A DNA stretch of 19,723 nucleotides. Origin: Prochloraceae cyanobacterium PL24a_bin.78. Its GTDB lineage: Bacteria > Cyanobacteriota > Cyanobacteriia > Cyanobacteriales > JANQIW01. Where the stretch lies: contig JANQIW010000050.1 of NCBI GenBank assembly GCA_028281945.1, positions 1 to 19,723 of the forward strand, read 5' to 3'. The notes below the pieces were generated by a model that saw only the letters and a list, made by a program, of their open reading frames with translations, searched no databases and was not told where the DNA came from. Positions 1,744 through 16,418 of this stretch are shown piece after piece (position 1 is the stretch's first letter; every line of letters begins with the position of its first letter). The position numbers and the translations under genes were made by a program.

Positions 1744-2154
1744 GTGGATTATTACTATTTTAGGTTACAAATAATTATGGATAATATATTAGCAGATATT
1801 GCTCATTATCTTTTCCAAGGTGGCATTATGAAAATTGGAGGAGAAATAGTGCAATCTCTTTGGAATAAATTTTGGGAAAAGATAAAAGATATTCCTAATG
1901 TTGATAAAGCTTTGTCAAAAGCAAAGGAAACTAAGTCAGAAGAAGTTTTCAAAGAAAAAATGTTGCCCTATATACAAATAGCAATGGAGGATGAGGATTT
2001 TGCTAATGAGATAAAAGAATTAGTTAAAAAAATTAAAAGTGAAGGTTATATTAATATAACAGGAGATCAAAATAATACTGGATTAATCAATAGTGAGAGT
2101 TTAAAAGATATAAATCAAAGTACTATTACTATAGATAAGTCAATAAAAAAGTAA
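1744..2154 (+). CDS. Small helical protein of unknown family, probably the N-terminal module of the downstream STAND NTPase (see slippery site 2145-2151)
   Basis: The ORF is open from GTG 1744. Alternative starts are ATG 1777 and ATG 1828, the latter preceded by the SD-like AAGGTGG at 1817-1823. It has a hydrophobic first segment, a K/E-rich helical middle and an N/S/T-rich tail. It ends ATA AAA AAG TAA. Confidence 0.6.
   Translation: MDYYYFRLQIIMDNILADIAHYLFQGGIMKIGGEIVQSLWNKFWEKIKDIPNVDKALSKAKETKSEEVFKEKMLPYIQIAMEDEDFANEIKELVKKIKSEGYINITGDQNNTGLINSESLKDINQSTITIDKSIKK
2145..2151 (+). promoter_or_regulatory. A_AAA_AAG heptamer in phase with ORF 1744-2154, immediately before its TAA. It is either a candidate -1 ribosomal frameshift site or the site of a 1-nt homopolymer indel.
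   Basis: The zero-frame codons are AT[A] AAA AAG TAA (2143-2154). The -1 frame (AAA AAA GTA ATT ...) is open from 2139 and is the same frame as the NB-ARC ORF (2292). That frame has no ATG, GTG or TTG between 2139 and the TTG at 2292. Confidence 0.45.
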
Positions 2155-2291
2155 TTAATATCAATAATTGGGAGATAAAAAATGAATTATTAAAAGATAA
2201 AAGACAATGGCAAAATCTTTCTATTAGCTTAAAAACTACACCAATACCAGTAGACAACTGGGTAGGTAGAGAGAAAGAATGTAGCCAAATA

Positions 2292-4874
2292 TTGGAATGG
2301 CTTCAAGATAAGAATGTAAAAGCTATCGGCATATTTGGGTTAGGAGGCATAGGGAAGTCTTCATTAGCCGTTAGGATATACAATTCAGAGATTTCTATTC
2401 CTAAAGAAAACAGATTTTGGGTAGAAGTTACTGTGAAACCAGACTTTGCCGCATTTGCTAAGGGAATTATTGCAGGATTAGGAGGGAAGCCAACATCTGC
2501 TGGGAAGATAGAAGAATTAGTGAATGAATTGGTAGCCTTTCTTAGCAAGCAGCAGTATTTTTTAGTAGTCGATAATTTGGAAACCCTTTTAGACGAAAAG
2601 CGGCGGTGGTTGGATGAAGGTTATGGAGATTTTTTTCGAGAATGGTTTCAACGTGGTAGCAATAGCATTATTTTGGTGACTTCTAGAGAAAAGCCAATCT
2701 TGTTTGATGGGAAGAAAGCAAACAATTTTTGCCTTGAATTAGGAGGTATTGGGGTAGAAAATGGAGTGGAGTTGTTAGAAAAGGAAGGTATTTATGGTGA
2801 AAAGAAAGATTTACAGGAATTTTGCGAAGAAGTGAATAGTCATCCTCTTTGTTTAAAGTTGGTAGCATCTTTTTTAAGGGAATATTGTGATTGTGATTTT
2901 AACGAGATAAAAGAGTTACAGCAGGAGGAATTAGTATACGAAGAGGCTTATGGTTTGCATCGAAATAGAGAAAATGCTTGTTTATCTTGGAGTTTAAATC
3001 AGCATTTAGAGAATTTGGATACAGTTAGCAAAAGGTTTTTAGAGTTTTTGTGCGTGTATAGATTACCTTTTGATAGTGAAGCTGCTGGAGTAATGTTTGG
3101 TAAAATTGGTGATAATCTTGATAAGATTAAGCTTAAAAAAGCATTAGGTGGATTAGTAAATCGATCGTTATTAATGAAATTAGATGGTGGTAGCTTTGAG
3201 TTTTTGTCTTTGGTAAGGAATTTTGTCATCAGTAAGTCGGAAGATTTAAGAAATGCCCATGAATTAGCGATCGATTATTATCGTAAGTATTACCCTTTTA
3301 CTTCTGATAAAGCCATTACTGATGTGGATGGATATTTGGAGTTGTTTTACCATCATTGTCAGTTAGAAGGGTATGATTCTGCTTTTGATGTGATTGAGTA
3401 TTGTTATAGTTTTTTGTCATTAAGAGGTTATTACACTAAGATAGTTGAATCTTATGAGATTTTGTTAAAGGTTTGGGAAGAAAAAGATTTTAAAGATTTT
3501 AATGCAATTAGTAGATATGTATTTACTGTTAACTCTTTGGGAAATGCTTACGAATTCTTTGGAGAATATTATAAAGCAATTAAATTTCACCAACATAATT
3601 TAGAGATAAATGCAATTATAGATAATAATCAATGGGAAGCATCCTCTTTGAATAATTTGGGAAATGCTTACAAATTTCTGGGGAAATATAACAATGCTAT
3701 TCAATCTTATCAGAAGTCTTTAGAAATAAGTAGAGAAATAGGTAATCGAAAAGGTGAAGCTTCATTTTTGAATAATTTGGGAAATGCTTACAAATCTCTG
3801 GGGAAATATAACAATGCTATTGATTATATTGAAGAATCTTTAGAGATAAATAGAGAAATAGGTAATCAAAAAGGTGAAGCTAAAGCATTGGGTAATTTAG
3901 GAAATATTTTCCAACGTTTAGGAAAACATAGTGAAGCAATTAATTATCAACAAGAATCTTTAAAGATAAATAGAGAAATAGGTAATCGTGAAGGAGAAGT
4001 ATCCTCTTTGAATAATTTGGGAAATGCTTACAAATCTCAGGGGAAATATGAAAATGCTATTGAATCTTATCAAAAGTCTTTAGAAATAAGTAGAGAAATA
4101 AAATATTTTCAAGGAGAAATTAATTCATTAAATAATTTAGGCGATATTTTTCAGTGTCTAGGAAAATATAATAAAGCAATTGATTATTACCAAGCATCTT
4201 TAGAGATAAATAGAAGAATAGAATATCGTCAGGGGGAAGCAAATTCTTTATATAATTTAGGAAATACTTACCATTGTTTAGGAGAATATCAAAACGCTAT
4301 TGAATCTTATCAAGAATCTTTAAAGATAAAAAGAAAACTAGAAAATAGTAAAGAGTTAACTGATGTATTAGGTAATTTGGGAGTTGTTTATACCTGCTTG
4401 AAAGAATATCAAAAAGCAATTGAATCATACCAAGAGTCTTTAGAAATAAGTAGAAGAATTTGCTATTGTCAAGGAGAAGTTAATTCCTTGATAGGTTTGG
4501 GAGTTAATTATAATTTCTTGGGAAAAGATAAAGAAGCAATTGAATCATACCAAGAGTCTTTAGAAATAAGTAGAAGAATTGGCTATCATCAAGGAGAATC
4601 TATATCATTATATAATTTGGGATATTTATACTACTGGTTGCAAGAATATCAAAAAGCAATGAAATATTATTTAGAGGCTTTTGATATAAGTATAGAGATA
4701 GGAGATTATTTCAAAGTAGGAATTTGTTGTTTTTATCTAGGAGATATTTTCATCAAGTTAAATCAGAATACAGAGGCAAAAAAATATTATTTACAAGCAA
4801 GAGATTTGTTTAAGGCGATGGGATTATATAAAGATGTAGAAAAATGCAATCAAAAGATTGAGGAATTAAATTAG
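2292..4874 (+). CDS. STAND NTPase: NB-ARC domain + 10-11 TPR repeats (NLR-like). The true 5' end is probably upstream of 2292.
   Basis: Walker A GLGGIGKS (aa 16-23, nt 2337-2360). Walker B FLVVDN (aa 90-95, nt 2559-2576). ILVTSR is the RNBS-B/sensor-I-like motif and HPLCLKLV is GLPLA-like. From about aa 410 there are 40-aa TPR units (LNNLGNAYKSLGKYNNAIESYQKSLEISREIGNRKGEA). The track start is a TTG with no SD, only 15 residues before the P-loop, and the frame stays open upstream to 2139 (..PVDNWVGREKECSQILEWL). Confidence 0.9.
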   Translation: MEWLQDKNVKAIGIFGLGGIGKSSLAVRIYNSEISIPKENRFWVEVTVKPDFAAFAKGIIAGLGGKPTSAGKIEELVNELVAFLSKQQYFLVVDNLETLLDEKRRWLDEGYGDFFREWFQRGSNSIILVTSREKPILFDGKKANNFCLELGGIGVENGVELLEKEGIYGEKKDLQEFCEEVNSHPLCLKLVASFLREYCDCDFNEIKELQQEELVYEEAYGLHRNRENACLSWSLNQHLENLDTVSKRFLEFLCVYRLPFDSEAAGVMFGKIGDNLDKIKLKKALGGLVNRSLLMKLDGGSFEFLSLVRNFVISKSEDLRNAHELAIDYYRKYYPFTSDKAITDVDGYLELFYHHCQLEGYDSAFDVIEYCYSFLSLRGYYTKIVESYEILLKVWEEKDFKDFNAISRYVFTVNSLGNAYEFFGEYYKAIKFHQHNLEINAIIDNNQWEASSLNNLGNAYKFLGKYNNAIQSYQKSLEISREIGNRKGEASFLNNLGNAYKSLGKYNNAIDYIEESLEINREIGNQKGEAKALGNLGNIFQRLGKHSEAINYQQESLKINREIGNREGEVSSLNNLGNAYKSQGKYENAIESYQKSLEISREIKYFQGEINSLNNLGDIFQCLGKYNKAIDYYQASLEINRRIEYRQGEANSLYNLGNTYHCLGEYQNAIESYQESLKIKRKLENSKELTDVLGNLGVVYTCLKEYQKAIESYQESLEISRRICYCQGEVNSLIGLGVNYNFLGKDKEAIESYQESLEISRRIGYHQGESISLYNLGYLYYWLQEYQKAMKYYLEAFDISIEIGDYFKVGICCFYLGDIFIKLNQNTEAKKYYLQARDLFKAMGLYKDVEKCNQKIEELN
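3536..4650 (+). repeat. Intragenic 120-bp periodic repeat (TPR-coding units) with long near-identical stretches between units
   Basis: ttgaataatttgggaaatgcttacaaat[t/c]tc[t/a]ggggaaatat recurs at about 3651, 3771 and 4011. tctttagaaataagtagagaaata and tctttagagataaatagagaaata recur every 120 or 240 bp. caattgaatcataccaagagtctttagaaataagtagaagaatt recurs at about 4417 and 4537. Confidence 0.9.
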
Positions 4875-5161
4875 ATAACAATGCAAATATCTGCCATGAA
4901 AAATTCTTCTATTCCTACCTCGTAAGAGAAATTCAATAAAAGAAGGATATCCTCCTTGCAAGGTAAATTCTTTAGGAAAATCTTGCATTAGCTTATTACT
5001 GCTTAAAGAAATATATTAAAAAGCCATGGAAAATTATCAAAAAGATTTTTTAGAGAAATATACGATAGAAGAGGTATTTCCTTGCCTTAAAGAATAACTA
5101 AATTACGAAGAAATCTCTTCATTGCTAACAACGCTAACAAGTCTTTGGAAATTTATCAATT

Positions 5162-5295
5162 ATACCAAATCCAATTTTCTTTCCTTTACTTATTAAAAAA
5201 ACTGTTTTATCTCCTACTTTTTCCCAATCTTTGCGAATAGAGAATTGAGAATTCCACCTCGCCAATAAAGCTTGTTTCATAACCAGATTTAGTAT
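5162..5295. repeat. Copy A of a roughly 135-bp dispersed or direct repeat with imperfect inverted termini (MITE-like or segmental duplication)
   Basis: The copy starts ataccaaatccaatt, runs through tttcccaatctttgcgaatagagaat and gaattccacctcgccaataaagcttgtttcataacc, and ends agatttagtat. The ends are roughly reverse-complementary (ATACCAAATCC / GATTTAGTAT). It aligns by eye along its whole length with 5488-5660, and the similarity extends about 20 nt into both flanks. Confidence 0.7.
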
Positions 5296-5487
5296 TAGGA
5301 ATTAAATATCAGCAAAAAAATTACAAAAGAATCAACAAAACAAACCTAAATAGAGAATTCCCTTCCAAGAAAACATTTACAAGTATAGACAGAGAAATAG
5401 AGAGATATAGAAATAGAGAATCTCAAGAAGAAGTTGCTTCATAGCCAAATTTGGATTTCCTTATAACTTTTTGGAAAAATATTATTG

Positions 5488-5660
5488 ATACCAAATCCGA
5501 TTTTTTTTCCTTGACTTACTTAAAAATTATTTTATCTCTTACTATTTCCCAATCTTTGCGAATAGAGAATGGATAATGGATAATGGAAATGGATAATGGA
5601 TAATGGATAATGTAGAATTCCACCTCATCAATAAAGCTGTTTCATAACCGGATTTAGTAT
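5488..5660. repeat. Copy B of the same repeat, carrying an internal (GGATAAT)n microsatellite
   Basis: The copy starts ataccaaatccgatt, runs through tttcccaatctttgcgaatagagaat[GGATAAT array]gtagaattccacctcatcaataaagctgtttcataacc, and ends ggatttagtat. A partial third left end (gataccaaatctttttgc) lies at about 5703. Confidence 0.7.
5571..5611. repeat. Heptanucleotide microsatellite (GGATAAT)5 with one GGAAAT variant
   Basis: It reads ggataat ggataat ggaaat ggataat ggataat ggataat. It sits exactly where copy A has only 'tga' between agagaat and gaattcc. Confidence 0.95.
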
Positions 5661-5988
5661 GAGGTATTAAAAACTATCAAAAGTTTGTAGTAACAAATAG
5701 ATAGATACCAAATCTTTTTGCTTTATCAATTTAACTGCAAAATAAATCACAATTTTAATCAAGGAAATACCTTTCTCAAACTAAATTCCAAATTGTTGGC
5801 ATTGGTATTTTATTTACAAGCTAGGAAATTTAGGAAACAACAAGAATTGATAATAAGGTAGAGGAATAAAATTAAAGAGATTCAAAAATGAGATAAAGAA
5901 GCAAAGATTTTCTATCAAAGATTATTCCTTCCTTTTAGAGATATACAAGAAAACAAAATATCTCCCTCATCCCTAGATAAATTTTTTA

Positions 5989-6032
5989 GGGAATGTTGCT
6001 TTAGCTAATAGGGAATGTTGCTTTAGCTAATA
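5989..6032. repeat. Perfect 22-bp tandem duplication (gggaatgttgctttagctaata x2)
   Basis: 5989-6010 and 6011-6032 are identical. The unit encodes a TPR-like LGNVALAN fragment, and 22 bp is not a multiple of 3. Confidence 0.95.
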
Positions 6033-6061
6033 ACGACTTCCTAGAATAAAATATTAATAAA

Positions 6062-7282
6062 GTGTCGATTGAATATTATCAAAAGTATTTGCAAATGGAT
6101 AAACAGATAGAGAATCCCCAGGAAAAAAATTCCCAGCAAAAAGCAATCTTATTAACTAAATTGGGAAATAGTTACCTCTTGAAAGGAGAATATCAAAAGG
6201 CAATGGAATATCATCTCAACTCATTAGACATCAAAAGGGAATTAGGAAATTTAAAAGGAGAAGCTATTTCATTAGCAAATTTAGGTATTGTCTATAAATA
6301 TTTGGGAGATTATCAAACAGCCATCAAATATTACCTAGAAGTATTAACCATAAGTAGAAAAATACCCTTTCACCAAGGAGAAATAATTTCATTAGGGAAT
6401 TTGGGAAATGCTTACTTATCCCTCAAAAATTACCAAAAGGCAATCGAATATTACCAACAGCTTTTAATCATTACTATAAAAAGAGGAAATCTACAAGCAG
6501 AAGCAATCGCATTATGTAATTTAGGTGTTGCTTTCCACTGCTTAGGGGAATATCAAAAAGCAATTCAATATTATCAAGAGGATTTAAATATTTGTCGAAA
6601 AATAGAAAATTCTCGAGGAGTTGCAATGGCATCAAGAAATTTAGGAGTTACTTACCACTCCTTGGGAGAATACCAAAAGGCAATTCAATATTACCAAGAG
6701 GATTTAGATATTTGTAGACAAATGGAAAATCACCAAAGAGAAGCAACGGCATTAGGAAATTTAGGTGTAGTTTACAATTCTGTTGGAGATTATCACAAAG
6801 CAATAGAATATCATCTCCAATCTCTAGAAATCAAAAAGAAGATTGGTTGTCGCCAAGGTGAAGCTTCATCATTAGGAGGTTTGGGAAATGCTTATTATTC
6901 CTTGGGAAAATTTCAAAAAGCAATAGAATATCACCTCCAATCTCTAGAAATCAAAAAGGAGATTAGTTGCCGTCTTGGAGTAGCTGCTTCATTAGGAGGC
7001 TTGGGAAATGTCTATTATTCCTTGGGAAAATTTCACAAAGCAATCCAGTTTTACCAACAGGTTTTTGAAATAAGCATAGAAATCCAATATCCTTTAGGGA
7101 TTGCAACTTCTTGTTTCAATTTAGGAAATTCTTTTGAAAAACTCAATTGCCAATCTCAAGCCAAAAAGTTTTTTTTACAGGCAAGGAAATTTTATCGCAA
7201 GATAAATTTGGATAAGAAGGTAGAGAATTGTGATAGTAAAATTGGCAAATTTAGAGAAGGAAAACATTTAAACACAAAATAA
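6062..7282 (+). CDS. TPR-repeat protein (9 units), paralogous to the sensor half of the NB-ARC-TPR gene and likely N-terminally truncated
   Basis: 406-aa ORF with a GTG start and no SD. It begins inside a TPR unit (SIEYYQKYL matches the AIEYYQ consensus), and TPR-like coding remnants continue upstream across stops (FLLEIYKKTKYLPHP*INFLGNVALAN). The units resemble LGNLGVVYNSVGDYHKAIEYHLQSLEIKKKIGCRQGEASS. The C-terminal cap is homologous to the end of ORF 2292-4874. Confidence 0.8.
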   Translation: MSIEYYQKYLQMDKQIENPQEKNSQQKAILLTKLGNSYLLKGEYQKAMEYHLNSLDIKRELGNLKGEAISLANLGIVYKYLGDYQTAIKYYLEVLTISRKIPFHQGEIISLGNLGNAYLSLKNYQKAIEYYQQLLIITIKRGNLQAEAIALCNLGVAFHCLGEYQKAIQYYQEDLNICRKIENSRGVAMASRNLGVTYHSLGEYQKAIQYYQEDLDICRQMENHQREATALGNLGVVYNSVGDYHKAIEYHLQSLEIKKKIGCRQGEASSLGGLGNAYYSLGKFQKAIEYHLQSLEIKKEISCRLGVAASLGGLGNVYYSLGKFHKAIQFYQQVFEISIEIQYPLGIATSCFNLGNSFEKLNCQSQAKKFFLQARKFYRKINLDKKVENCDSKIGKFREGKHLNTK

Positions 7283-7372
7283 AATTTAAACATAAATTCT
7301 TAAATCTAGTTAATCCTGTTAAAATCAAACCAAAAATATACCATCAATTAACTATTAAAAAATTTTCAAATC

Positions 7373-8977
7373 ATGAAACATATCACCTCAATACTAGGTA
7401 TTGCCATAACAGGAATCCCAATAATTGTATATGCAATGCCAGATGTTAGCAAAATTGCCCAAGAAATTACAGTCAGAATTGACGGAGTTAGTAGTGGCAG
7501 CGGTGTAATAATTCAAAAAAAAGGAGAAACTTACTATATACTCACCAATACCCACGTAATAGATAAAGTTGGAGAATACCAAGTAACTACTTCCGATGGT
7601 AAAACTCACCAAATAGATGAACAAAAGATTATAAAATTACCAAATTTAGATATTGCTATACTAACTTTCACTAGTGATTTACCCTATCCCACAGTAAAAA
7701 TAGCAAATCCAGATGCCATAAACCGAGGAGAAAAAATTCATGTAAGCGGTTGGGCACGCTCGGGAGGTAGTTTAAGACAAAGAATTTATATTAAAACAGA
7801 AGGAATCCTCACAGATACCGATTCCCAACTCCCACTAGGTAACTCATTAAGCTATACAAATTTAGTAAGAGCAGGTATGAGTGGTGGTCCAATTCTCAAT
7901 AATAAAGGACAACTAATCGGAATTAATGCTTTAGTAAGGCTAGAGCAAAATTCAGATAATATAGTATCTTCTGGAATTAGTATCAATAAAATTATGACAT
8001 GGCTAGAAGAATACGCCATAATAGAAATAAATTCAAATAGCCAAAATGCAAATAACCCACAAACAAGGCCTACTATTAACACATCAAATAACAATTATAC
8101 CTTAACCAATACCCTACAAGCCCAAGGAAGAAGCGTCAATACTCTTGCCTTAAAAGATTCCATCTTAGCAAGTGGCCAAAGTAATGGTAGTATTTCCCTC
8201 TGGAATATCACCAGTCAATCTCCCATAAAAACCTGGAAAGCCCATTCACAAGGCATTAACGCCTTAGCCATTAGCCCAAATGGAGAATATCTTGTTAGTG
8301 GCAGTGATGATAATCTCATTAAAATTTGGGATTTATCCACAGGAAAATTATTCAAAACCTTAAAAGGCCACCAAGATTCAGTCACAAGTCTTGCTTTTAC
8401 TCCAGACGGAGAAACCATTGCCAGCGGGAGTTGGGATAAAACCATTAAGCTTTGGAATATCCAAACAGGGGAGATAATACATTCATTAGAAAAACATTCA
8501 GGGTTAATTAATACCATTTTTATTAGTAATGATGGTAAATTTTTAGCTAGTGGTTCAGCCGATACAAATATTTATTTATGGGATATTCAATCAGGAGAAG
8601 TGATTAATACCTTAAAAGGACATAGTTTATCCGTCTTATCTATGGTAATGACCACTGATAATCAGACATTAGTTAGTAGCGATGGCAACGGTCTCATTCA
8701 TATTTGGAATCTTCAGACAGGTAAAGTTACTAACATTTTAGAAGGCCATTTAGATGGAGTATGGTCTTTAATTGTAACCTCCGATGGTAAAACCTTAATT
8801 AGTAGTAGTTGGGATAAAACTATTAAGTTTTGGGATATTTCTAATGCTAAATTAAGGTATACTTTAAAAGAACATTCAGATTATGTTGTGACTCTTGCTT
8901 TGAGTCAAGATGATACAACCTTGGTTAGTGGGGATTGGAATTCTCAAATTAAGATTTGGCAAATCTTGTCAAATTAA
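7373..8977 (+). CDS. Trypsin-fold (S1/Trypsin_2-like) serine protease fused to a 7-bladed WD40 propeller, with an N-terminal hydrophobic signal or anchor
   Basis: The catalytic triad is intact: His61 (ILTNTHVI, cac 7553-7555), Asp93 (NLDIAILTF, gat 7649-7651) and Ser170 (GMSGGPIL, agt 7880-7882). The N-terminus reads MKHITSILGIAITGIPIIVYA. An N/Q/T-rich linker is followed by 7 WD40 units from about aa 245 (for example GHQDSVTSLAFTPDGETIASGSWDKTIKLWNIQTGE). Confidence 0.9.
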   Translation: MKHITSILGIAITGIPIIVYAMPDVSKIAQEITVRIDGVSSGSGVIIQKKGETYYILTNTHVIDKVGEYQVTTSDGKTHQIDEQKIIKLPNLDIAILTFTSDLPYPTVKIANPDAINRGEKIHVSGWARSGGSLRQRIYIKTEGILTDTDSQLPLGNSLSYTNLVRAGMSGGPILNNKGQLIGINALVRLEQNSDNIVSSGISINKIMTWLEEYAIIEINSNSQNANNPQTRPTINTSNNNYTLTNTLQAQGRSVNTLALKDSILASGQSNGSISLWNITSQSPIKTWKAHSQGINALAISPNGEYLVSGSDDNLIKIWDLSTGKLFKTLKGHQDSVTSLAFTPDGETIASGSWDKTIKLWNIQTGEIIHSLEKHSGLINTIFISNDGKFLASGSADTNIYLWDIQSGEVINTLKGHSLSVLSMVMTTDNQTLVSSDGNGLIHIWNLQTGKVTNILEGHLDGVWSLIVTSDGKTLISSSWDKTIKFWDISNAKLRYTLKEHSDYVVTLALSQDDTTLVSGDWNSQIKIWQILSN

Positions 8978-8990
8978 ATCTTGTCAAATT
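8961..8990. repeat. Perfect 15-bp tandem duplication (aaatcttgtcaaatt x2) spanning the stop codon of the protease-WD40 gene
   Basis: 8961-8975 equals 8976-8990. The TAA stop (8975-8977) is formed across the junction of the two copies. Confidence 0.95.
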
Positions 8991-9042
8991 CAGTATTCTC
9001 AAGTATTATCAAGATAATATATAAAACTAAAACTAGGAATGG

Positions 9043-10017
9043 ATGATTGAAGTCGAGCATCTTAGTAAAATATATGGTAGTACAATAGCAATTCATGATG
9101 TAGCCTTTAATGTTTCTGAAGGGGAAATATTAGGGTTTTTAGGCCCAAATGGAGCCGGCAAAACTACTACCATGCGAATTTTAGCAGGTTATATCCCTGC
9201 TACTACCGGGACGGCCAAAATAGCAGGTTTTGATGTCCACGATCGATCGATGGAAGTGCGATCGAGAATTGGGTATTTACCAGAAACCCCGCCATTGTAT
9301 TTAGATATGACAGTGGAAGCATATTTAAACTTTGTCGCCAAAATCAAAGGAGTAAATGCAGGGGATCGTCAGAATCGAGTAAAAACAGCAATAAAAAATA
9401 CTCAGCTAGAAGAAAAACAAAAAGTAATTATCCGGAAATTATCTAAAGGCTATCGACAAAGGGTAGGTATAGCCCAAGCTATAGTTCACGATCCTCCTGT
9501 AATTATCCTCGATGAACCGACAGTAGGGCTTGATCCCAAACAAATTATAGAAGTTCGCAACTTAATCAAAAATCTGGCAGGGAAACATACTATAATTCTC
9601 TCAACTCATATTCTTCCAGAAGTAAGTATGACTTGTAATCGAGTTGCCATTATTAATAAAGGAAAAATAGTAGCAACAGATGCCCCAGAAAATTTGATGC
9701 AACAACTTTCAGGGAGTTCAGGTTATCTAATAGAGGTAGAGGGAGATTGTTCTGTTATCAAACCCGAACTTGAGGGAATTTTAGGTGTTTCTAAGGTAGA
9801 AATACAACCATTAGAATTGAATAAACGTTCTTTAGTCCAAATAAATTTATCAGCAAATAAAGAACTTGGGAAAGAAATTGCTGCTATGATTGTAAATGCA
9901 GGACTAGGATTATATGAAATGCGACGTAATCGTCCAACTTTAGAAGACGTATTTTTAGAATTAACTACTACTGAAAAAGTTTTTAATGAACCCGAACAAG
10001 GAAAATCAGAACAATAA
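9043..10017 (+). CDS. ABC transporter ATP-binding protein (ABC-2 / GldA-like subfamily)
   Basis: Walker A GPNGAGKTT, signature LSKGYRQR, Walker B VIILDEPTVGLD and H-loop STHIL. The downstream operon contains an ABC-2 permease, a GldG-like protein and a DUF4340 protein. Confidence 0.92.
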   Translation: MIEVEHLSKIYGSTIAIHDVAFNVSEGEILGFLGPNGAGKTTTMRILAGYIPATTGTAKIAGFDVHDRSMEVRSRIGYLPETPPLYLDMTVEAYLNFVAKIKGVNAGDRQNRVKTAIKNTQLEEKQKVIIRKLSKGYRQRVGIAQAIVHDPPVIILDEPTVGLDPKQIIEVRNLIKNLAGKHTIILSTHILPEVSMTCNRVAIINKGKIVATDAPENLMQQLSGSSGYLIEVEGDCSVIKPELEGILGVSKVEIQPLELNKRSLVQINLSANKELGKEIAAMIVNAGLGLYEMRRNRPTLEDVFLELTTTEKVFNEPEQGKSEQ

Positions 10018-11806
10018 AAGTAAAAATAAAAAGATTAATCTCTGTCTTAATCCAGACTGTCTACACCAAAATCTAGTGAAAGCTCAAATTTGTGAACATT
10101 GTAATTGTAAATTATTATTAAAAGAGCGTTATCGTCCCATTAAATTAATAGGACAAGGTGGTTTTGGAAAGACTTTTTTGGCAGTAGATGAAGGGAAACC
10201 CTCTAAACCATACTGTGTAATTAAACAGTTTTTTCCAAAAGGACAAAAGCCTAGTGCCCTTAAAAAAGCCGCTGAATTATTTGAAAAAGAAGCAATGCGT
10301 TTGGAGCAATTAGGTAAACATCCTCAAATTCCTGAATTAATAGCATATTTTAATGAAAATAATAAACAATATTTAGTTCAAGAATATATAGATGGAGATA
10401 ACTTAGCTGAAGAATTAAAAAATAAAGGGAGGTTTAATGAAAATAAAATCAAAGTATTTTTACTGGATTTACTAAATATATTAAAATTTATTCATAAAAA
10501 CAAAATTATTCATCGAGATATCAAACCAGAAAATATAATTCGTCGAAAGCAAGATGGGAAGGTGGTTTTAGTAGATTTTGGAGCTGCTAAAGTGGCGACT
10601 GAAAAAGAATTCGGACAAGAAGGAGATCTTGCCATAGGTTCGGCAGAATATATACCTCCAGAACAAAAGGCAGGAAATGCCATATATGCCAGTGATCTCT
10701 ATAGTTTAGGAGTGACTTGTATAAATTTATTAACTAAGAAAAGCCCTTTCGATTTATATGATGATCATGAAAATAAATGGATTTGGAAAAGATATTTAGA
10801 AGAAGAACAAATAAGTTTTCGGTTAGGAAAAATTATAGATAAATTAGTATCTACAATTCCCAAGAAACGCTATAAATCTAGTCAAGAAGTTTTAGAAGAA
10901 TTAGATCCAAGTAGAGAACCTTCTCCAGAAGATCAGATTCAATTCCAGAAAATAACTTTTGAAATAGCTATACTCGAACAACAAAAAGCAGGATTATTTG
11001 GGTTAGGAACAAAATTAATATGTAATTACTCTACCGGAAAAGCCAAATCTTATCTAGAACATTTAAAAAATGGTCACATCATTGAAATGATAAAAATACC
11101 AGGAGGTAATTTCCAAATGGGATCTCCTGACACAGAAGACCAACAATGTCAACGAGAAAGTCCTCAGCATTGGGTTACAATCGCTCCCTTTTGTATGAGC
11201 AAGTATCCAATAACTCAAGAACAATGGCTAGAAGTTGCTAAACTACCTAAAATTAAGCTAAATTTAAATCCTAAACCATCTTATTTTGAAGGTGAAAATC
11301 TTCCGGTAGAGCAAATATCTTGGTTTGAAGCCATGGAATTCTGCTATCGTTTATCTAAAAAATCAGGGATGACTTATACTCTTCCCACAGAGGCTCAATG
11401 GGAATATGCTTGTCGCGCAGGTACTAACACTGAATTTCACTTTGGTTCTAATATCACCACTGATTTAGCCAATTATAATGGCACCAGTTATAAAGGTGCT
11501 CCCAAAGGCAAGGATCGTCAACAAACAACTCCAGTAGATAGCTTTTATGCTAATCCTTTTGGTTTATACGATTTGCATGGCAATGTTTGGGAATGGTGTG
11601 CTGACTATTGGCATGATAATTATAAAGATGCACCCACCGATGGTAGTGCTTGGTTATCTGGGGCTAATCCTAAAACTCCTCGTGTAGTACGTGGAGGATC
11701 TTGGTATTTTTTCCCTAGAGATTGTCGTAGTAGCAATCGAGAATTTATGAGTTCTGAAGTTCAGGATTTTAATTTTGGCTTTAGAATTGTCAGATTAATG
11801 GAGTGA
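9986..11806 (+). CDS. Zn-ribbon + Ser/Thr protein kinase + FGE-sulfatase-like (SUMF1/EgtB/PvdO family) domain fusion
   Basis: Zn-ribbon CLNPDC..(12)..CEHCNC. Kinase motifs are GQGGFGKTF, CVIKQF, HRDIKPEN (cat cga gat at 10511-10519), DFGAAK and SAEYIPPEQ. The C-terminal domain has IPGGNFQMGSP, EAQWEYACRAG, HGNVWEWC, RGGSW and GFRIV. The ATG at 9986 overlaps the ABC ATPase gene by 32 nt in another frame. Confidence 0.9.
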   Translation: MNPNKENQNNKSKNKKINLCLNPDCLHQNLVKAQICEHCNCKLLLKERYRPIKLIGQGGFGKTFLAVDEGKPSKPYCVIKQFFPKGQKPSALKKAAELFEKEAMRLEQLGKHPQIPELIAYFNENNKQYLVQEYIDGDNLAEELKNKGRFNENKIKVFLLDLLNILKFIHKNKIIHRDIKPENIIRRKQDGKVVLVDFGAAKVATEKEFGQEGDLAIGSAEYIPPEQKAGNAIYASDLYSLGVTCINLLTKKSPFDLYDDHENKWIWKRYLEEEQISFRLGKIIDKLVSTIPKKRYKSSQEVLEELDPSREPSPEDQIQFQKITFEIAILEQQKAGLFGLGTKLICNYSTGKAKSYLEHLKNGHIIEMIKIPGGNFQMGSPDTEDQQCQRESPQHWVTIAPFCMSKYPITQEQWLEVAKLPKIKLNLNPKPSYFEGENLPVEQISWFEAMEFCYRLSKKSGMTYTLPTEAQWEYACRAGTNTEFHFGSNITTDLANYNGTSYKGAPKGKDRQQTTPVDSFYANPFGLYDLHGNVWEWCADYWHDNYKDAPTDGSAWLSGANPKTPRVVRGGSWYFFPRDCRSSNREFMSSEVQDFNFGFRIVRLME

Positions 11807-11872
11807 AGCAAATTAATTTTATGTTAAATTGAATCTGTAACTACCAATTAAGTTAATTTAGGTCTTTGATTT

Positions 11873-12520
11873 ATGTTTTCAGCTATTCTGTTCGATTTAG
11901 ATGGCACCATGGTTAATACGGACCCGATTCACTTTTTAATTTGGCAAGAGATTTTAGCTGATTTCGGCATCAACGTCGATCGTCCATTTTATGATAAGTA
12001 TATCTCTGGGGGACATAATCCAGAAATAGTTAAAGAAATTTTGCCTCAATTATCAGATGAAGAAGGATTGAAATTTGCTGATGATAAAGAAGCTCGTTTT
12101 CGTCAATTGGGAACGGAATTAAAACCCCTACCAGGTTTATTAGATTTATTAGAATGGATTGACTCCTTAAACATCAAAAAAGCCGTAGTAACTAATGCTC
12201 CCAGTCTCAATGCTGAATTTATGTTGGATGCTCTAAATTTAACAGATCGCTTTGAAATCGTAATTTTAGGAGAAAAATCTCCTAAGCCTAAACCAGATCC
12301 TGCCCCTTATCAAGAAGCATTAGAGGCTTTAAATGTCTCAAATGAAAGAGTAATCGCCTTTGAAGATTCACCTTCAGGAATTCGATCGGCAGTAGGAGCA
12401 GGAATTTATACCATTGGCGTAGCAACTACTCATTTCCCAGAAAATATAATAGCACAAGGTGCATCTATGGTTATCCCAGATTTTACATCTCCTAAGTTGT
12501 GGGAATTATTAAATAGATAA
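11873..12520 (+). CDS. HAD-superfamily hydrolase (subfamily IA, beta-phosphoglucomutase/phosphatase-like)
   Basis: Motif I is FDLDGTMVNTD, motif II is AVVTNA, and motifs III/IV are KPKPDP...AFEDSPSGIRSAVGAG. Confidence 0.88.
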   Translation: MFSAILFDLDGTMVNTDPIHFLIWQEILADFGINVDRPFYDKYISGGHNPEIVKEILPQLSDEEGLKFADDKEARFRQLGTELKPLPGLLDLLEWIDSLNIKKAVVTNAPSLNAEFMLDALNLTDRFEIVILGEKSPKPKPDPAPYQEALEALNVSNERVIAFEDSPSGIRSAVGAGIYTIGVATTHFPENIIAQGASMVIPDFTSPKLWELLNR

Positions 12521-12553
12521 TTAATAGAAAGATTTACAGAATTTGATTGATTT

Positions 12554-13345
12554 ATGATAAAAAATATTATGGCTATATGCCAGAAAGAATTACTTGGCTA
12601 TTTTAGTTCCACCTTAGCTTATAGCATAATAGGGATTTTTTGGCTCATATCAGGCTTCTTTTTTTATGCAATTCTCATAGGCCCAGGGGGAATAATTCAG
12701 AGTGTAGCTTCCGCAGAACAATTAGGAATACCTATTCCTCCCATTGATGTTGCCTATGATTTTATTCAAACTTTTTATAGTATTATGGGAGTACTAAGTT
12801 TATTTATTTTACCTATACTTTCTATGGGACTTTATGCAGAAGAACGCAAACGAGGAACACTTGAACTTTTAGCAACTTCACCAATCACTAATTGGGTAGT
12901 AGCTTTAGGGAAACTTTTAGGAGTGGTAGGATTTTTTATTGTTGGAATTGCTCCTATTCTGATATATGAAGCAATTGCTTTTAGTGCCGCTAACCCACCA
13001 ATTCCACCTGGAGTGCCTTTATTGGCTATTTTTGGTTTAATTTTACTAGCCACCTCAATTCTTTCCATTGGGATGTTTATTTCTTCTTTGACTGATAGCT
13101 CGATTTTAGCAGCTATTCTTACTTTTACCCTCGTATTATTTCTTTGGATAATTGATATTATTGCTAACAATCTTGAAGGGTTTTTAGGGGATTTCTTTAA
13201 GCATATTTCTTTGTTAAATCATTACGAAAATCTGATTCAAGGTTCTTTAAATATTAGCAGTATTATTCTATTTTTAAGTTACATTTTTTTAGGGATCTTT
13301 TTGACAGCCCAATATATAGAAACTTTACGTTTTTCTCGTCAATAA
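12554..13345 (+). CDS. ABC-2 family transporter permease
   Basis: 263 aa with about 6 hydrophobic helices. It carries the EERKRGTLELLATSP motif typical of ABC-2 / GldF-like permeases, and it lies in an operon context with the ATPase and a GldG-like gene. Confidence 0.85.
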   Translation: MIKNIMAICQKELLGYFSSTLAYSIIGIFWLISGFFFYAILIGPGGIIQSVASAEQLGIPIPPIDVAYDFIQTFYSIMGVLSLFILPILSMGLYAEERKRGTLELLATSPITNWVVALGKLLGVVGFFIVGIAPILIYEAIAFSAANPPIPPGVPLLAIFGLILLATSILSIGMFISSLTDSSILAAILTFTLVLFLWIIDIIANNLEGFLGDFFKHISLLNHYENLIQGSLNISSIILFLSYIFLGIFLTAQYIETLRFSRQ

Positions 13346-13482
13346 TTAAGTCCAATTTTAATAACTTAGAAAAAATTAAAATACTCTTCTATGGAACTTT
13401 TAACTTGTATATAGAATCAAAATTACAAGACAGTTAAAAAAAATTAAAACAACCATTGAAGATCACAATTAATAGAAATACA

Positions 13483-15063
13483 ATGCAAAAATATCTCAAA
13501 TATTTGTTCTTCCTAAATATATTTTTATTAAGTGCTGCAATAGTAGCTAGATTAGTGTCTCAAAGCTGGTCAATATTTAGTATTGTCTTATTAATAGCAG
13601 GAATTATTAGCTCTATTATTTGGACATTTTATATAACATCAAAGCAAAAGTTTTGGCAATTAAGATCGACAGAAGCAGGAACAAATGCTTTAATTTCTAG
13701 CATATCAGTTATAGCAATTCTAGTATTGATTAACTTTTTAGGAGTTAATTATCTAACAGAAATAGACTTAACCGAAAACCAACTATTAACTCTTTCTACT
13801 CAAACCCAAGAAGTTGTAGAAAATTTAAAACAACCAATTAAAATCTTTCTATTTGTGCCTCAAAAAGATCAAGCAAACCAACAGTTATTAGAAAATTATA
13901 GTAGTTATAATTCTCTGTTTGAATATCAATTTGTCGATCCTGATTCTAATATTGAATTAGCCAGAAAATTTAACGTAAAATCTCTAGGAGAAGTTTATAT
14001 AGAATATGAAAACAAAAGAGAATTAGTCAAAAAAATCGATAGACTAGAAAGTATTGACGAAGCAACTTTAACTAATGCAATTCTCAAAATTCAAAGGGAT
14101 AGCAAATTATATATTTATTTTCTACAAGGCCATGGAGAAGCCACTTTAGATGCTAATGAAGGTGGGCTTTTTCAAGCAATTACTAGCTTACAAGAAAAAG
14201 GTTATATAGTAGGCACTTTAAACTTAGCAGAAACTTCCACAATACCAGAAAATACTAATGCTATTACTATTATTAATCCTCAGCGAAAATTACTCCCAGG
14301 GGAAATAACAATTCTCCAAAATTATCTAGATAATGGTGGGAATTTATTAGTAATGTTAGATGCCGAAATTAATTCTAATTTAGATACTTTGTTGGAAAAA
14401 TGGGGTATTAAATTAGATAATCGCTTGATTTTAGATGCTTCTGGCGCAGGGGCGTTATTAGGTTTAGGGCCAGCAGCTACTTTAATTACTAATTATGGCA
14501 CTCATCCCATTACAGAAGATTTCTCAGAAGGCATATCTATTTATCCTTTTGCTCGCCCTATTAATATTAATGATGTAGAAAATATCGAAAAAACCCCTTT
14601 ATTAATTACCAATCGAGATACTTGGGGGGAAAGTAATTTAGAAGGAGAAGCAGCAGAATTCAATCCTAATGAAGATCTACAGGGTCCTTTAAATATGGCT
14701 TTTGCTCTCATTCGTAACGATGAATCTTCTCAAAATTCTGACTCTAATCCTAATTCTGAAGCAAATAATACAGAAGAAAATCCTTCAAAAACTGCTAAAT
14801 CTAAATTAGTTATTATAGGTAATGGAACTTTCGCCACTAATGGTTGGTTTGAACAACAGTTAAATGGAGATATGTTTCTTAATTCTGTTAGTTGGTTAGC
14901 AGGAGAAGATGATGCAAATATTTCCATTCGTCCTAAAGAACCTAAAAACCGACGTATTAATTTACTTAATTGGCAAGCAGGAATTATTACTTGGTTAGCA
15001 TTAGTAGTGATGCCTTTATTAGCATTTACTACTGCATTAGGGATTTGGTGGCAAAGACGTTAA
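13483..15063 (+). CDS. GldG-like ABC-transporter auxiliary protein (ABC-type uncharacterized transport system family)
   Basis: It has N-terminal TM helices, a large soluble domain (FLQGHGE..., LLVMLDAE..., HPITEDF...) and a C-terminal TM helix (IITWLALVVMPLLAFTTALGIWW). I chose ATG 13483, while the ORF track uses an upstream TTG at 13456. The position after the ABC-2 permease is typical. Confidence 0.8.
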   Translation: MQKYLKYLFFLNIFLLSAAIVARLVSQSWSIFSIVLLIAGIISSIIWTFYITSKQKFWQLRSTEAGTNALISSISVIAILVLINFLGVNYLTEIDLTENQLLTLSTQTQEVVENLKQPIKIFLFVPQKDQANQQLLENYSSYNSLFEYQFVDPDSNIELARKFNVKSLGEVYIEYENKRELVKKIDRLESIDEATLTNAILKIQRDSKLYIYFLQGHGEATLDANEGGLFQAITSLQEKGYIVGTLNLAETSTIPENTNAITIINPQRKLLPGEITILQNYLDNGGNLLVMLDAEINSNLDTLLEKWGIKLDNRLILDASGAGALLGLGPAATLITNYGTHPITEDFSEGISIYPFARPININDVENIEKTPLLITNRDTWGESNLEGEAAEFNPNEDLQGPLNMAFALIRNDESSQNSDSNPNSEANNTEENPSKTAKSKLVIIGNGTFATNGWFEQQLNGDMFLNSVSWLAGEDDANISIRPKEPKNRRINLLNWQAGIITWLALVVMPLLAFTTALGIWWQRR

Positions 15064-15092
15064 TTTAAATTTAATTTAAGCCAAAATAAGTT

Positions 15093-15722
15093 ATGAAAAT
15101 TAATTCTAGTAGTTTAGCTTTATTAATTATTGCTTGTAGTTTAGGAATATTTGTTTACTTTTACGAAATTCAAGGTAGTGAAAAACGAGAAATTATTCAA
15201 ACTAATAGCAAAAAACTTTTTAATTTTACTAAAGAAGATATTCAAACATTTAGTATCTTAAAACAAGATCAAATTCTTCAATTTGAAAAAAGCGGTAAAC
15301 AACCTAAACCTTGGCAGATGAAACAGCCAAATGATACACTTGCCAGCGATGCGGCTATTTCTTTTTTATTAAATTTATTGGTTAATTCTGACAAAGATCG
15401 ATCAGTGAAAATATCTAGTCAGCAACTATCAGAATATGGCTTAGAAAATCCTTTAGCTAACATAGACATTCAACTTAAAAATGGAAAGTATCACCAATTA
15501 ATTTTAGGAAATACTAACTTTAATAATAGTTTAATTTATGCTTTAGTAGATACTTCAGATAATATCCAAACTGAATTTGAAGTATTTTTATTGCCAATTA
15601 ATTTTAAATATGCCGTAGAAAGACAGTTAGAAGAATGGCAAGAACCAGAATTAAATTCTGAAAATTTAAATCTTCCTGAAGTTAATTCACAAGATAAGGA
15701 GAATCAAAACCTACAAAATTAA
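15093..15722 (+). CDS. DUF4340-like membrane-anchored protein, the usual partner of GldG-like genes
   Basis: 209 aa with an N-terminal TM segment (LALLIIACSLGIFVYFY) and a KPWQMKQP...AD..AI..LL..L segment. It sits directly after the GldG-like gene. The family call is from context and memory. Confidence 0.6.
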   Translation: MKINSSSLALLIIACSLGIFVYFYEIQGSEKREIIQTNSKKLFNFTKEDIQTFSILKQDQILQFEKSGKQPKPWQMKQPNDTLASDAAISFLLNLLVNSDKDRSVKISSQQLSEYGLENPLANIDIQLKNGKYHQLILGNTNFNNSLIYALVDTSDNIQTEFEVFLLPINFKYAVERQLEEWQEPELNSENLNLPEVNSQDKENQNLQN

Positions 15723-15851
15723 AGACTCAAAATACACAAAAGATAACAAGGCTAGGCTTTTTAGAAAAATATTATTAGAAATCTTGAAGAGATAATTAGT
15801 CATTAGACAATTGTTATAATTAATCAAATTCAATCAAGGTAATTTGAGATT

Positions 15852-16283
15852 ATGAAGAAACCAGCAATTTTTCATCTTGCAATTCCCATTAACGATATTG
15901 CTAAAGCAAAAAGCTTTTATACATCTTTAGGATGTGAGATAGGCAGAGAAAATCCTCATGCTATTATTCTCGACTTTTATGGACATCAAGTTGTTTGTCA
16001 TATGACAAAAGATGAACTTGCCCCTCAAAAAGGTATTTATCCTCGACATTTTGGCTTAGTTTTCCATGAAGAATCAGATTGGGAAAATATTTTTGCACGG
16101 GCACAAGAGCATAATTTATCTTTTTGTCAAGAATCTAAAGTACGATTTCCTGGTAAAATAACTGAACATCGTACTTTTTTCTTAGAAGATCCTTTTTATA
16201 ACTTGTTGGAGTTTAAATTTTACCGTAATTTTGAAGCTATTTTTGGCGCACGTGAAATTGTAGAGATTGGCGATCGCACCTAG
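15852..16283 (+). CDS. VOC (glyoxalase/bleomycin-resistance/dioxygenase fold) family protein
   Basis: 143 aa. It reads FHLAIPINDIAKAKSFYTSLGCEIGRE...FYGHQVVCH...RHFGLVF...FFLEDPFYNLLEFKF, which fits the beta-alpha-beta-beta-beta module pattern. Confidence 0.7.
   Translation: MKKPAIFHLAIPINDIAKAKSFYTSLGCEIGRENPHAIILDFYGHQVVCHMTKDELAPQKGIYPRHFGLVFHEESDWENIFARAQEHNLSFCQESKVRFPGKITEHRTFFLEDPFYNLLEFKFYRNFEAIFGAREIVEIGDRT
16270..16277. other. HIP1 octamer GCGATCGC, a cyanobacterial highly iterated palindrome
   Basis: This is the only exact match in the window, inside the 3' end of the VOC gene. Near-matches with a CGATCG core occur at about 284, 906, 3261 and 9241-9265. Confidence 0.9.
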
Positions 16284-16418
16284 AGCTTAATTATCTAAAT
16301 AATATTAGGAAGAATAGTAGGAATAAAAATAAAAAATATACTAAAATACTTACTATTTTCTTTTTATTAGATAAAATTAAAATGTTTAAATATATTATCT
16401 TTAATAATTAAATCATAG

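Follow-up and report, generated by a model that had tools for sequence, protein, structure and literature searches.

A Bell-domain effector gene and its NB-ARC-TPR receptor gene in a cyanobacterium are probably joined by translational recoding

The stretch of DNA analysed here (the window: 19,723 nt, ∼31% GC, contig JANQIW010000050.1 of Prochloraceae cyanobacterium PL24a_bin.78) carries a small open reading frame (ORF) for a predicted helical Bell-domain protein, followed on the same strand by a gene for an NB-ARC-TPR protein, i.e. an NTPase of the STAND (signal-transducing ATPases that have numerous domains) class that resembles the NOD-like receptors (NLRs). Our analysis suggests that the functional unit of the region is 1777-4874, which holds the Bell effector gene and the NLR gene, and that the two are probably joined at the level of translation. 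Comparison with related loci favours a scheme in which both are expressed by recoding at their junction, giving a free effector and a rare effector-NLR fusion. The initial annotation of this DNA had recognised in 1744-4874 a STAND module (NB-ARC-TPR, NLR-like) of a type that has been connected with programmed cell death or defence in multicellular bacteria, and we agree with that assignment. It had also treated the small ORF and the NTPase as two ordinary genes, which is not borne out: the reading frame of the NTPase is already open at 2139, before the small ORF has ended. What makes the region unusual, namely the way in which the helical ORF meets the NTPase, had been passed over. The recoding junction appears to be undescribed, in a module of a known kind.

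The Bell ORF (1777-2154, + strand; 125 residues followed by TAA) ends in ...TCA ATA AAA AAG TAA, with the stop codon at 2152-2154. Read in the Bell phase, its last codons contain the heptamer A_AAA_AAG (2145-2151), which is followed directly by the Bell stop, and we regard these ten nucleotides (2145-2154, + strand) as a candidate -1 frameshift site. The NLR gene as called (2292-4874, + strand; 860 residues) has its Walker A motif at 2337-2360 and its TPR array at ∼3624-4811. Pfam matched it to NB-ARC (E 1.8e-10, residues 2-197), to TPR_12 (E 1.4e-84) and also to TPR_1; the NB-ARC match begins at residue 2 of the called protein, so that the N-terminus looked cut. The frame does continue upstream, as an extension without a start codon (2139-2291, + strand) that is -1 relative to the Bell ORF and encodes ...LSISLKTTPIPVDNWVGREKECSQI. 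It is open from 2139, 13 nt ahead of the Bell stop, and reads VNKKVININNWEIKNELLKDKRQWQNLSISLKTTPIPVDNWVGREKECSQI before the first possible start, a TTG at 2292; there is no ATG, GTG or TTG in the NLR frame for 51 codons before this position. Within the extension, 5' of the called TTG start, a pre-NB-ARC peptide (TTPxxxxNWVGRE) aligns with the related loci L001, L002, L003, L005 and L021, and also with P0003, a fused caspase-NB-ARC-TPR protein. The Bell and NLR frames overlap over 2139-2151, i.e. 4 codons, and the heptamer falls inside this overlap. The NLR frame is intact over 911 codons, and a -1 slip on A_AAA_AAG would yield a fused protein of 1,031 residues. Among the 5,527 codons of the window there are 5 in-phase heptamers of the type X_XXA_AAG, of which the junction supplies the single A_AAA_AAG; the probability of finding an in-phase X_XXA_AAG within the 4-codon overlap by chance is ∼0.4%.

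We compared this junction with those of a related set of 20 Bell-NLR loci (L numbers), in each of which a same-strand gene follows the Bell ORF, of the NB-ARC-TPR type in all but one locus, which has a NACHT gene; the order of a Bell ORF and then a collinear NB-ARC or NACHT gene with TPR or WD repeats is true of the window and of all 20. One useful locus, L021, came from a metagenome scan. Distant NB-ARC loci without a Bell ORF (L009-L019), among the matches listed from a genome scan, served as controls only. The NLRs of L021, L001, L002, L005 and L003 share 45-48% identity with that of the window. In the largest group, class (a), 14 loci have one in-frame stop codon between Bell and NLR, immediately after which the NLR frame is open. 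The members are L001 (a Leptolyngbyaceae metagenome-assembled genome), L002 (Argonema antarcticum), L005 (Aerosakkonema funiforme), L003, L007 (Nodularia), L025 (Coleofasciculus), L027, L028 (Nostoc sp. PCC 7120, plasmid pCC7120gamma) and, on Acaryochloris plasmids, L029-L032, L035 and L037. The L028 pair, at ∼65.5-70.4 kb of NC_003267.1, encodes Bell WP_044520337.1 and NLR WP_044520336.1. The stop codon and the base after it are TGA-C in 12 of the 14, TGA-G in one and TAG-C in one. As a background, these loci hold 166 other ORFs of ≥200 codons: TGA-C closes 5 of them (3%), and their stops are TAA in 84 cases, TGA in 45 and TAG in 37. Readthrough is commonest at UGA and is increased by a C at position +4 (PMC5289835).

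The sequences between the class (a) stops and the NB-ARC domain, 23-35 codons long, vary in length yet always keep the frame, and the linkers of the 13 loci counted contain no stop codon in frame vs 20 and 20 in the other two frames. Six loci (L021, L028, L029, L030, L031 and L032) lack any ATG, GTG or TTG between the Bell stop and the P-loop. These observations are difficult to reconcile with a scheme, which we consider unlikely, in which Bell and NLR are always separate products, the NLR starting at a weak or non-canonical codon, perhaps via translational coupling that keeps the sensor scarce, and the shared frame being a relic of a fused ancestor. In support of such a scheme, a TTG is present at 2292 in the window (the corresponding candidates in the relatives being ATT, ATC, ATA, CTG or GTG), L001, L002, L005, L007 and L037 have a GTG or TTG codon at the VGR motif or close to it, a GTG that is annotated as the start directly follows the TGA in L035, and RefSeq annotates these loci as two genes. 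It would nevertheless leave six loci without a canonical start before the Walker A motif, and it gives no reason for linkers of variable length to stay free of stops in one frame only (0 vs 20 and 20), for TGA-C to be found at 12 of 14 junctions against a 3% background, for both -1 loci to carry a canonical X_XXA_AAG exactly at the frame overlap, or for a conserved peptide to lie 5' of every candidate start. It would also leave these NLRs without any other coupling to Bell, the NLR-side motif described below being absent from them.

The RefSeq NLR starts for L028, L029, L030, L031 and L032 are drawn from ATT (three loci), ATC and ATA, in the order ATT, ATT, ATT, ATC, ATA, and lie at 4481 in L028, at 4472 in L029, L030 and L032, and at 4568 in L031. 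These non-canonical starts look like systematic mis-annotation caused by the in-frame TGA.

Class (b) comprises the two loci with a -1 relation between the frames, in which a slippery heptamer ends with the last codon before the stop: A_AAA_AAG TAA in the window and G_GGA_AAG TAG in L021. The NLR of L021, although of the -1 type, shares 65-68% identity with NLRs from TGA-type loci. The junction of the window is not an assembly artefact, because the Logan assembly of SRR20820736 is 100% identical to it over 3,540 nt, A-run included. This independent assembly also speaks against the possibility that the junction is a 1-bp homopolymer frameshift, i.e. an inactivating mutation or a sequencing error in a gene that was once fused or in frame, with the heptamer there by chance and the NLR either a pseudogene or translated only from TTG 2292. 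The decayed TPR material directly downstream indicates that gene decay does occur at this locus, but the NLR frame itself is intact over its 911 codons and keeps all of the NB-ARC motifs. The ∼31% GC content, the lack of a stimulatory structure and the fact that no close relative of the source contig was retrieved would likewise fit a 1-bp lesion; a lesion would, on the other hand, have had to fall at a domain boundary, within a 4-codon overlap, and on the most shift-prone bacterial heptamer. Furthermore, L021 reaches the same solution with a different heptamer, and the homologous position also interrupts translation in 14 relatives. We consider a chance frameshift to be decidedly improbable, and the junctions to be, with fair probability, sites of programmed frameshifting or readthrough that would give a free effector and a rare effector-NLR fusion.

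Two other mechanisms were considered and set aside. Transcriptional slippage is unlikely, as the A-run is only 6 A long in the window and 3 in L021. Selenocysteine insertion was rejected: one junction is TAG, two are frameshifts, and no family of the SECIS (selenocysteine insertion sequence) type was found.

The proposal depends on what the small ORF encodes. Its likely start is the ATG at 1777, the GTG at 1744 being the earliest possible start. In an AlphaFold2 model built with an alignment, residues 3-89 form a five-helix bundle (helices 3-17, 23-36, 42-52, 55-69 and 73-89, at a predicted local distance difference test (pLDDT) score >90), and residues 93-125 form a disordered N/I/T/Q-rich tail (pLDDT <50). 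The protein begins MDNIL, with an acidic residue at position 2 (opening sequence MDNILADIAHYLF), and many members of its family, against whose profile it scores E 2.8e-38, have an N-terminus of the form MEP[VIL][ST]. Dyrka et al. describe Bell proteins of ∼120-140 residues in which a five-helix bundle opens with a hydrophobic helix, residue 2 or 3 is acidic, and a C-terminal amyloid-signalling (BASS) motif of ∼25 residues recurs at the N-terminus of the adjacent, collinear NLR; they list ∼2,350 Bell proteins of <200 residues (bioRxiv 10.1101/2020.01.06.895854). An N-terminus of the 'MEPIS' type is on record for the NLR Avast2 and for the Bab, Bell and Hell domains. Because of the five-helix model, the MEP[VIL][ST] N-termini of the family and these published descriptions, we identify the small ORF as encoding a predicted Bell-domain protein, the HeLo/MLKL-like effector of Bell/BASS-NLR pairs. 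Its link to proteins already classed as Bell is indirect, and runs through members of the profile family (L026, L033, L034 and L038) that match BASS8 or BASS9 rows of Table S2 of Dyrka et al. No model in Pfam or NCBIfam matches the small ORF (1744-2154), and in Foldseek searches neither of the two Bell models significantly matched any PDB entry, so these searches give no support at the level of the fold for identity with Bab or HeLo. An identity as an EAD adaptor was rejected, because Pfam gives no EAD match and the family fits the Bell description.

Homologues were sought with an exhaustive HMMER search (13 matches) and two profile searches (53 matches, and the best 120 of 258). They are stand-alone cyanobacterial proteins of 84-287 residues, mostly 133-156 residues. 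No annotated fused Bell-NLR was found among 12 of the 13 HMMER matches, the 53 profile matches and the best 120 of the 258 profile matches; the one HMMER match that was not small is a low-complexity match to a protein of 3,245 residues. A tblastn search of plasmids with the window ORF gave no match. The closest relative of the window Bell ORF is P0028 (58% identity). The tail of P0028 holds three tandem copies of a ∼27-residue motif (GKIGDNATIQTGGNK...), an arrangement that recalls published pseudorepeats of certain BASS and HET-s motifs; the window Bell tail is shorter and is without such repeats. A second Bell-like protein (318 residues, N-terminal Bell profile match E 1.7e-26) is encoded just downstream of the pair in L030 (7167-8123), on plasmid pREB4 of A. 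marina MBIC11017.

Not all of the related loci have a recoding-type junction. Class (c) consists of four canonical pairs (L026, L033, L034+L036 and L038) with TAA or TAG stops, an NLR that has its own ATG or GTG, and variable relative frames. The canonical NLRs carry an N-terminal extension of up to ∼110 residues before the NB-ARC domain that repeats the tail motif of the Bell protein, and Smith-Waterman comparison of Bell tail with NLR N-terminus gave z 5.3-7.9 in the four pairs. The motifs match entries in Table S2 of Dyrka et al., i.e. BASS8 (YNNYGRDQINI / GRDQINIEN) and BASS9 (DNAKGWQTKVEGGTAYI / NAKGFQTLVTGGIANI). In contrast, the NLR-side copy of the Bell tail motif is absent from all 16 recoding-type loci (z ≤3.2 in the same comparison; 0.7 in the window). 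The two architectures are nonetheless close to one another: the NB-ARC domain of the canonical L033 is 87% identical to that of the recoding-type L029, and in this pair of loci from Acaryochloris plasmids a recent exchange of the NLR N-terminus between the canonical and recoding architectures seems to have taken place. From such alignments the junction classes are seen to interconvert among close relatives.

Several observations weigh against a recoding junction in the window. Heptamers of the wider type X_XXY_YYZ have a ∼7% chance of falling in the overlap, and A-rich runs are common at ∼31% GC. The 63 nt after the heptamer contain no stimulatory structure (minimum free energy -2.3 kcal/mol, fold z -0.06), and no Shine-Dalgarno (SD)-like (GGAGG-like) stimulator lies upstream of it; the sole candidate stimulator of a slip in the window is the stop codon that adjoins the heptamer. 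The TTG at 2292 could start a slightly truncated NLR, and the GTG directly after the TGA in L035 fits termination-reinitiation. The window Bell tail (residues 93-125) was not recognisable as any of BASS1-10; relatives L001, L003 and L025 have BASS9-like Bell tails (DNAKGYQVxxV...G). In eight loci an RNA hairpin of 5 bp starts 8 nt past the stop, with an outer helix that pairs the stop codon with AAGUU(A); 98.8% of the cells in these eight loci are paired, with 2 compensatory pairs, vs ≤49% in slid controls, but this support comes from 8 related sequences, and the single-sequence fold z-scores are not significant. Many of the 20 loci are akin (six are Acaryochloris paralogues, and three share synteny), and they represent ∼7-9 independent lineages. 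The whole case for recoding is comparative, and the fusion is a predicted product.

We propose that the Bell-NLR module would work as follows. Most ribosomes would terminate at the Bell stop and so produce the free 125-residue Bell protein, while a few would slip to -1 (in the window) or read through UGA (in the relatives) and produce a Bell-tail-NB-ARC-TPR fusion of ∼1,031 residues. Both products seem to be needed, the free Bell protein because no fused member was found in the Bell searches, and the fusion because the downstream frame is unbroken yet has no start codon. Binding of a trigger, probably a phage or other foreign protein, by the TPR array would lead to oligomerisation of NB-ARC, and the oligomerised fusion would cluster its N-terminal Bell and tail modules. 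These clustered modules could then nucleate or template the free Bell pool, and the hydrophobic first helix of Bell would be released and inserted into the membrane, killing the cell by abortive infection or by an altruistic death within the filament. Recoding would in this way stand in for the NLR-side copy of the motif: it would fix a high effector-to-sensor ratio, with a single motif copy shared by both products. We lean, by a modest degree, towards extending the proposal to a whole subfamily of cyanobacterial Bell-NLR genes, with a member in the model strain Nostoc sp. PCC 7120, which would be expressed by recoding (mostly UGA-C readthrough, with -1 X_XXA_AAG frameshifting in others) and in which a single mRNA would give plentiful pore-forming effector and a scarce fusion, whose N-terminus would template the free pool.

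The initial annotation had not recognised the combination of genes as a named system; it matches the Bell-domain/NLR pair of Dyrka et al. (bioRxiv 10.1101/2020.01.06.895854). As in those Bell/BASS-NLR pairs, a helical Bell protein of ∼125-150 residues with a hydrophobic first helix and a Q/N/G-rich tail stands next to a same-strand NB-ARC or NACHT NLR with TPR or WD repeats, in filamentous cyanobacteria. Bab/Agp is a functional example of such pairs (bioRxiv 10.1101/2024.11.07.622273). In the published pairs the NLR starts at a codon of its own and bears a second copy of the motif at its N-terminus, and 57% of the pairs are ≤10 bp apart and 42% overlap (bioRxiv 10.1101/2020.01.06.895854). The window and 15 relatives differ in that they have no NLR copy of the motif and often no NLR start codon, and are linked by an in-frame stop (mostly UGA-C) or a -1 slippery heptamer. 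In combining a death domain, NB-ARC and repeats, the predicted fusion resembles the all-in-one NLRs (e.g. fungal HeLo-NLRs, plant coiled-coil (CC)-NLRs and Avs2 with its 'MEPIS' N-terminus); unlike them, it would be the minority product and the free effector the main one. Bell-NLR pairs are bacterial counterparts of the fungal HET-S/NWD2 amyloid signalling system, and resemble the cell-death switches of plant CC-NLRs.

The proposed recoding also has parallels. Known cases of -1 frameshifting include the heptamers A_AAA_AAG and G_GGA_AAG, E. coli dnaX, and the tail-assembly g-t pair of phages and archaeal viruses (PMC5009743). The class (b) junctions are like dnaX and g-t in that the heptamers are identical and in that short and long products with a common N-terminus would be made in a fixed ratio. 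They are unlike them in that no downstream hairpin or SD-like stimulator was found in the window, where the stop directly follows the heptamer, and in that the gene is of a cellular immune-receptor type rather than a replication or virion gene. The G-T pair of phage lambda is such a tail-assembly frameshift pair. The relatives resemble cases of programmed UGA readthrough (UGA-C/CUAG contexts in eukaryotes) in their +4C, often as UGA CUA G, in their continuous downstream ORF and in their small hairpin 8 nt downstream; the window itself differs in using a frameshift. The A1 protein of phage Q-beta is a product of programmed UGA readthrough. We found no account of UGA readthrough in immune genes of bacterial chromosomes or plasmids, or in cyanobacteria. 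Neither Dyrka et al. nor Kaur et al. (PMC7159879) refer in the main text to stop codons, readthrough or frameshifts, and a 2026 survey of STAND proteins (PMC13581612) mentions frameshifting only for phage tail chaperones. A search of the full-text literature on Bell, BASS and NLR with recoding found nothing relevant, such absence being no proof of novelty.

Two questions are central to such systems: how the sensor passes its signal to the executioner, and what holds the amount of a lethal effector in proper proportion to that of the sensor. If the proposal is true, the ribosome sets the effector:sensor ratio, and the sensor carries the very effector and motif module that is to be nucleated. 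Current annotation would then systematically mis-start these NLR genes (with RefSeq ATT, ATC or ATA starts for five of them), and UGA readthrough and -1 frameshifting would be interchangeable at one homologous site in a cellular, non-viral gene. To our knowledge, this would be the first recoding-dependent bacterial immune receptor. We likewise know of no earlier description of a conserved cellular stop-codon readthrough in cyanobacteria. The proposal is directly testable, since the genetically tractable Nostoc sp. PCC 7120 carries the same junction on one of its plasmids, as do plasmids of Acaryochloris.

In the initial annotation the system had extended further downstream: five genes formed one cassette, with TPR paralogues and a trypsin-WD40 protein added to the helical ORF and the NLR, and the protease as the candidate executioner. 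The genes are indeed neighbours on one strand, 90-190 nt apart; their co-orientation is uninformative as evidence of a cassette, because every ORF from 1744 to 17342 shares the + strand. More than 1 kb of decayed, largely non-coding DNA and a terminator-like hairpin (5970-5992) separate the NLR from the TPR-only gene. This mostly non-coding stretch (4875-6061) has no ORF of more than 47 residues. A decayed TPR paralogue had been placed at 4925-5869: a relic of the C-terminus of a TPR protein is present at 5754-5840 (E 3.6e-5), but the remainder is unrecognisable, all other tblastn and blastn matches having E >0.1. The stretch also contains a direct repeat (5144-5317 and 5470-5682; ∼85% identity, in blocks of ∼110 and ∼70 nt, with a period of ∼326 nt), which could be a small repeated element or the leftover of a tandem duplication. 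The TPR-only ORF that follows (6062-7282, + strand; 406 residues) matches only TPR families in Pfam, with no NB-ARC, and is 43-47% identical to residues ∼460-907 of the NLR. From this identity it is best described as an old, diverged partial copy of the C-terminal half of the NLR, kept as a remnant or an accessory; no TPR-only gene after the NLR was seen in the gene tables of the relatives.

The last member of the supposed cassette is the protease-WD40 gene (7373-8977, + strand), which encodes a Trypsin_2 domain (residues 42-184) with the H61/D93/S170 triad. Its fusion to WD40 repeats stands, with six repeats scored by Pfam vs the seven blades counted earlier. Trypsin-like peptidases do recur in NTP-dependent conflict systems (PMC7159879), yet none was found within 4-10 kb of the 20 Bell-NLR loci when 340 kb from 38 loci were searched with tblastn, so that this test of synteny went against the protease as a co-localising gene or executioner. 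The only trypsin-like gene found, in L014 of Argonema antarcticum (7485-8084), shares 35% identity with the protease domain of the window and is separated by 4 kb from a distant NB-ARC gene; L014, which could be cited in favour of a cassette, is without a Bell ORF. The window protease domain is HtrA/DegP-like (NCBIfam matches of the Do/HtrA type, below cut-off) and the protein opens with a signal-peptide-like hydrophobic segment, MKHITSILGIAITGIPIIVYA, suggesting that it is likely to be an unrelated envelope protease that acts outside the cytoplasm. In having a STAND NTPase with TPRs, in its taxonomic niche and in a logic whereby a small helical adaptor couples effector to NTPase, the region is like the EAD-coupled NTP-dependent conflict systems of Kaur et al. 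2020 (PMC7159879). It is unlike them in that no EAD, Trypco, vWA-MoxR or GAP1 component is present, Pfam finding no EAD or other shared adaptor domain in the small ORF or the protease and no search having been aimed at Trypco neighbours, and in that the trypsin gene is not syntenic. Because the 20 Bell-NLR loci show no synteny with the protease, which is HtrA/DegP-like and has a signal-peptide-like start, the five-gene cassette is unsupported and, in our view, very improbable. The protease-WD40 gene and the TPR relics are bystanders, and under the published Bell/NLR model the likely executioner is the helical N-module itself, not the protease.

The other features of the window were largely as first described. 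The four ORFs at 1744/1777-2154, 2292-4874, 6062-7282 and 7373-8977 were all confirmed on the + strand, as were the NTPase motifs (GLGGIGKS at residues 16-23, i.e. nt 2337-2360, FLVVDN at 90, ILVTSR at 127 and HPLCL at 184) and the protease triad (H61, D93 and S170). A Pfam profile search recovered the NB-ARC and TPR, the TPR-only and the Trypsin_2 and WD40 assignments. The block had been thought to be AT-richer and poorer in HIP1 than the DNA that follows it; in fact its GC content (0.310 for 1744-8977) is close to that of 9043-17342 (0.321), and HIP1 (GCGATCGC) carries no information, occurring once in the whole window, at 16270. In a PADLOC scan no system-specific model (Avs, bNACHT or others) matched, and the matches were generic: TPR models, the protease domain of RT-Protease_XI and a WD40-like HEAT-ARM model. 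An Rfam scan of the window gave no match, and promoter and terminator scans gave nothing above chance.

Some further observations concern the relatives and the rest of the window. In some NLRs of the window clade (L003 6412-7800, and P0005) a repeated low-complexity peptide (SPP.PLLQGEGSKS) is inserted in or after the NB-ARC region. Toxin-antitoxin genes (PIN, PhdYeFM, HicA/HicB, ParE and RelE) repeatedly flank the Bell-NLR pairs, a context like that of a defence island (L001 12314-12961; L002 12828-13974; L005 9015-9739; L007 4394-5755; L036 3519-4000). Further downstream in the window, a gene for a fusion of a Ser/Thr protein kinase with an FGE-sulfatase (606 residues; 9986-11806) overlaps an ABC-transporter ATPase gene (9043-10017) by 32 nt.

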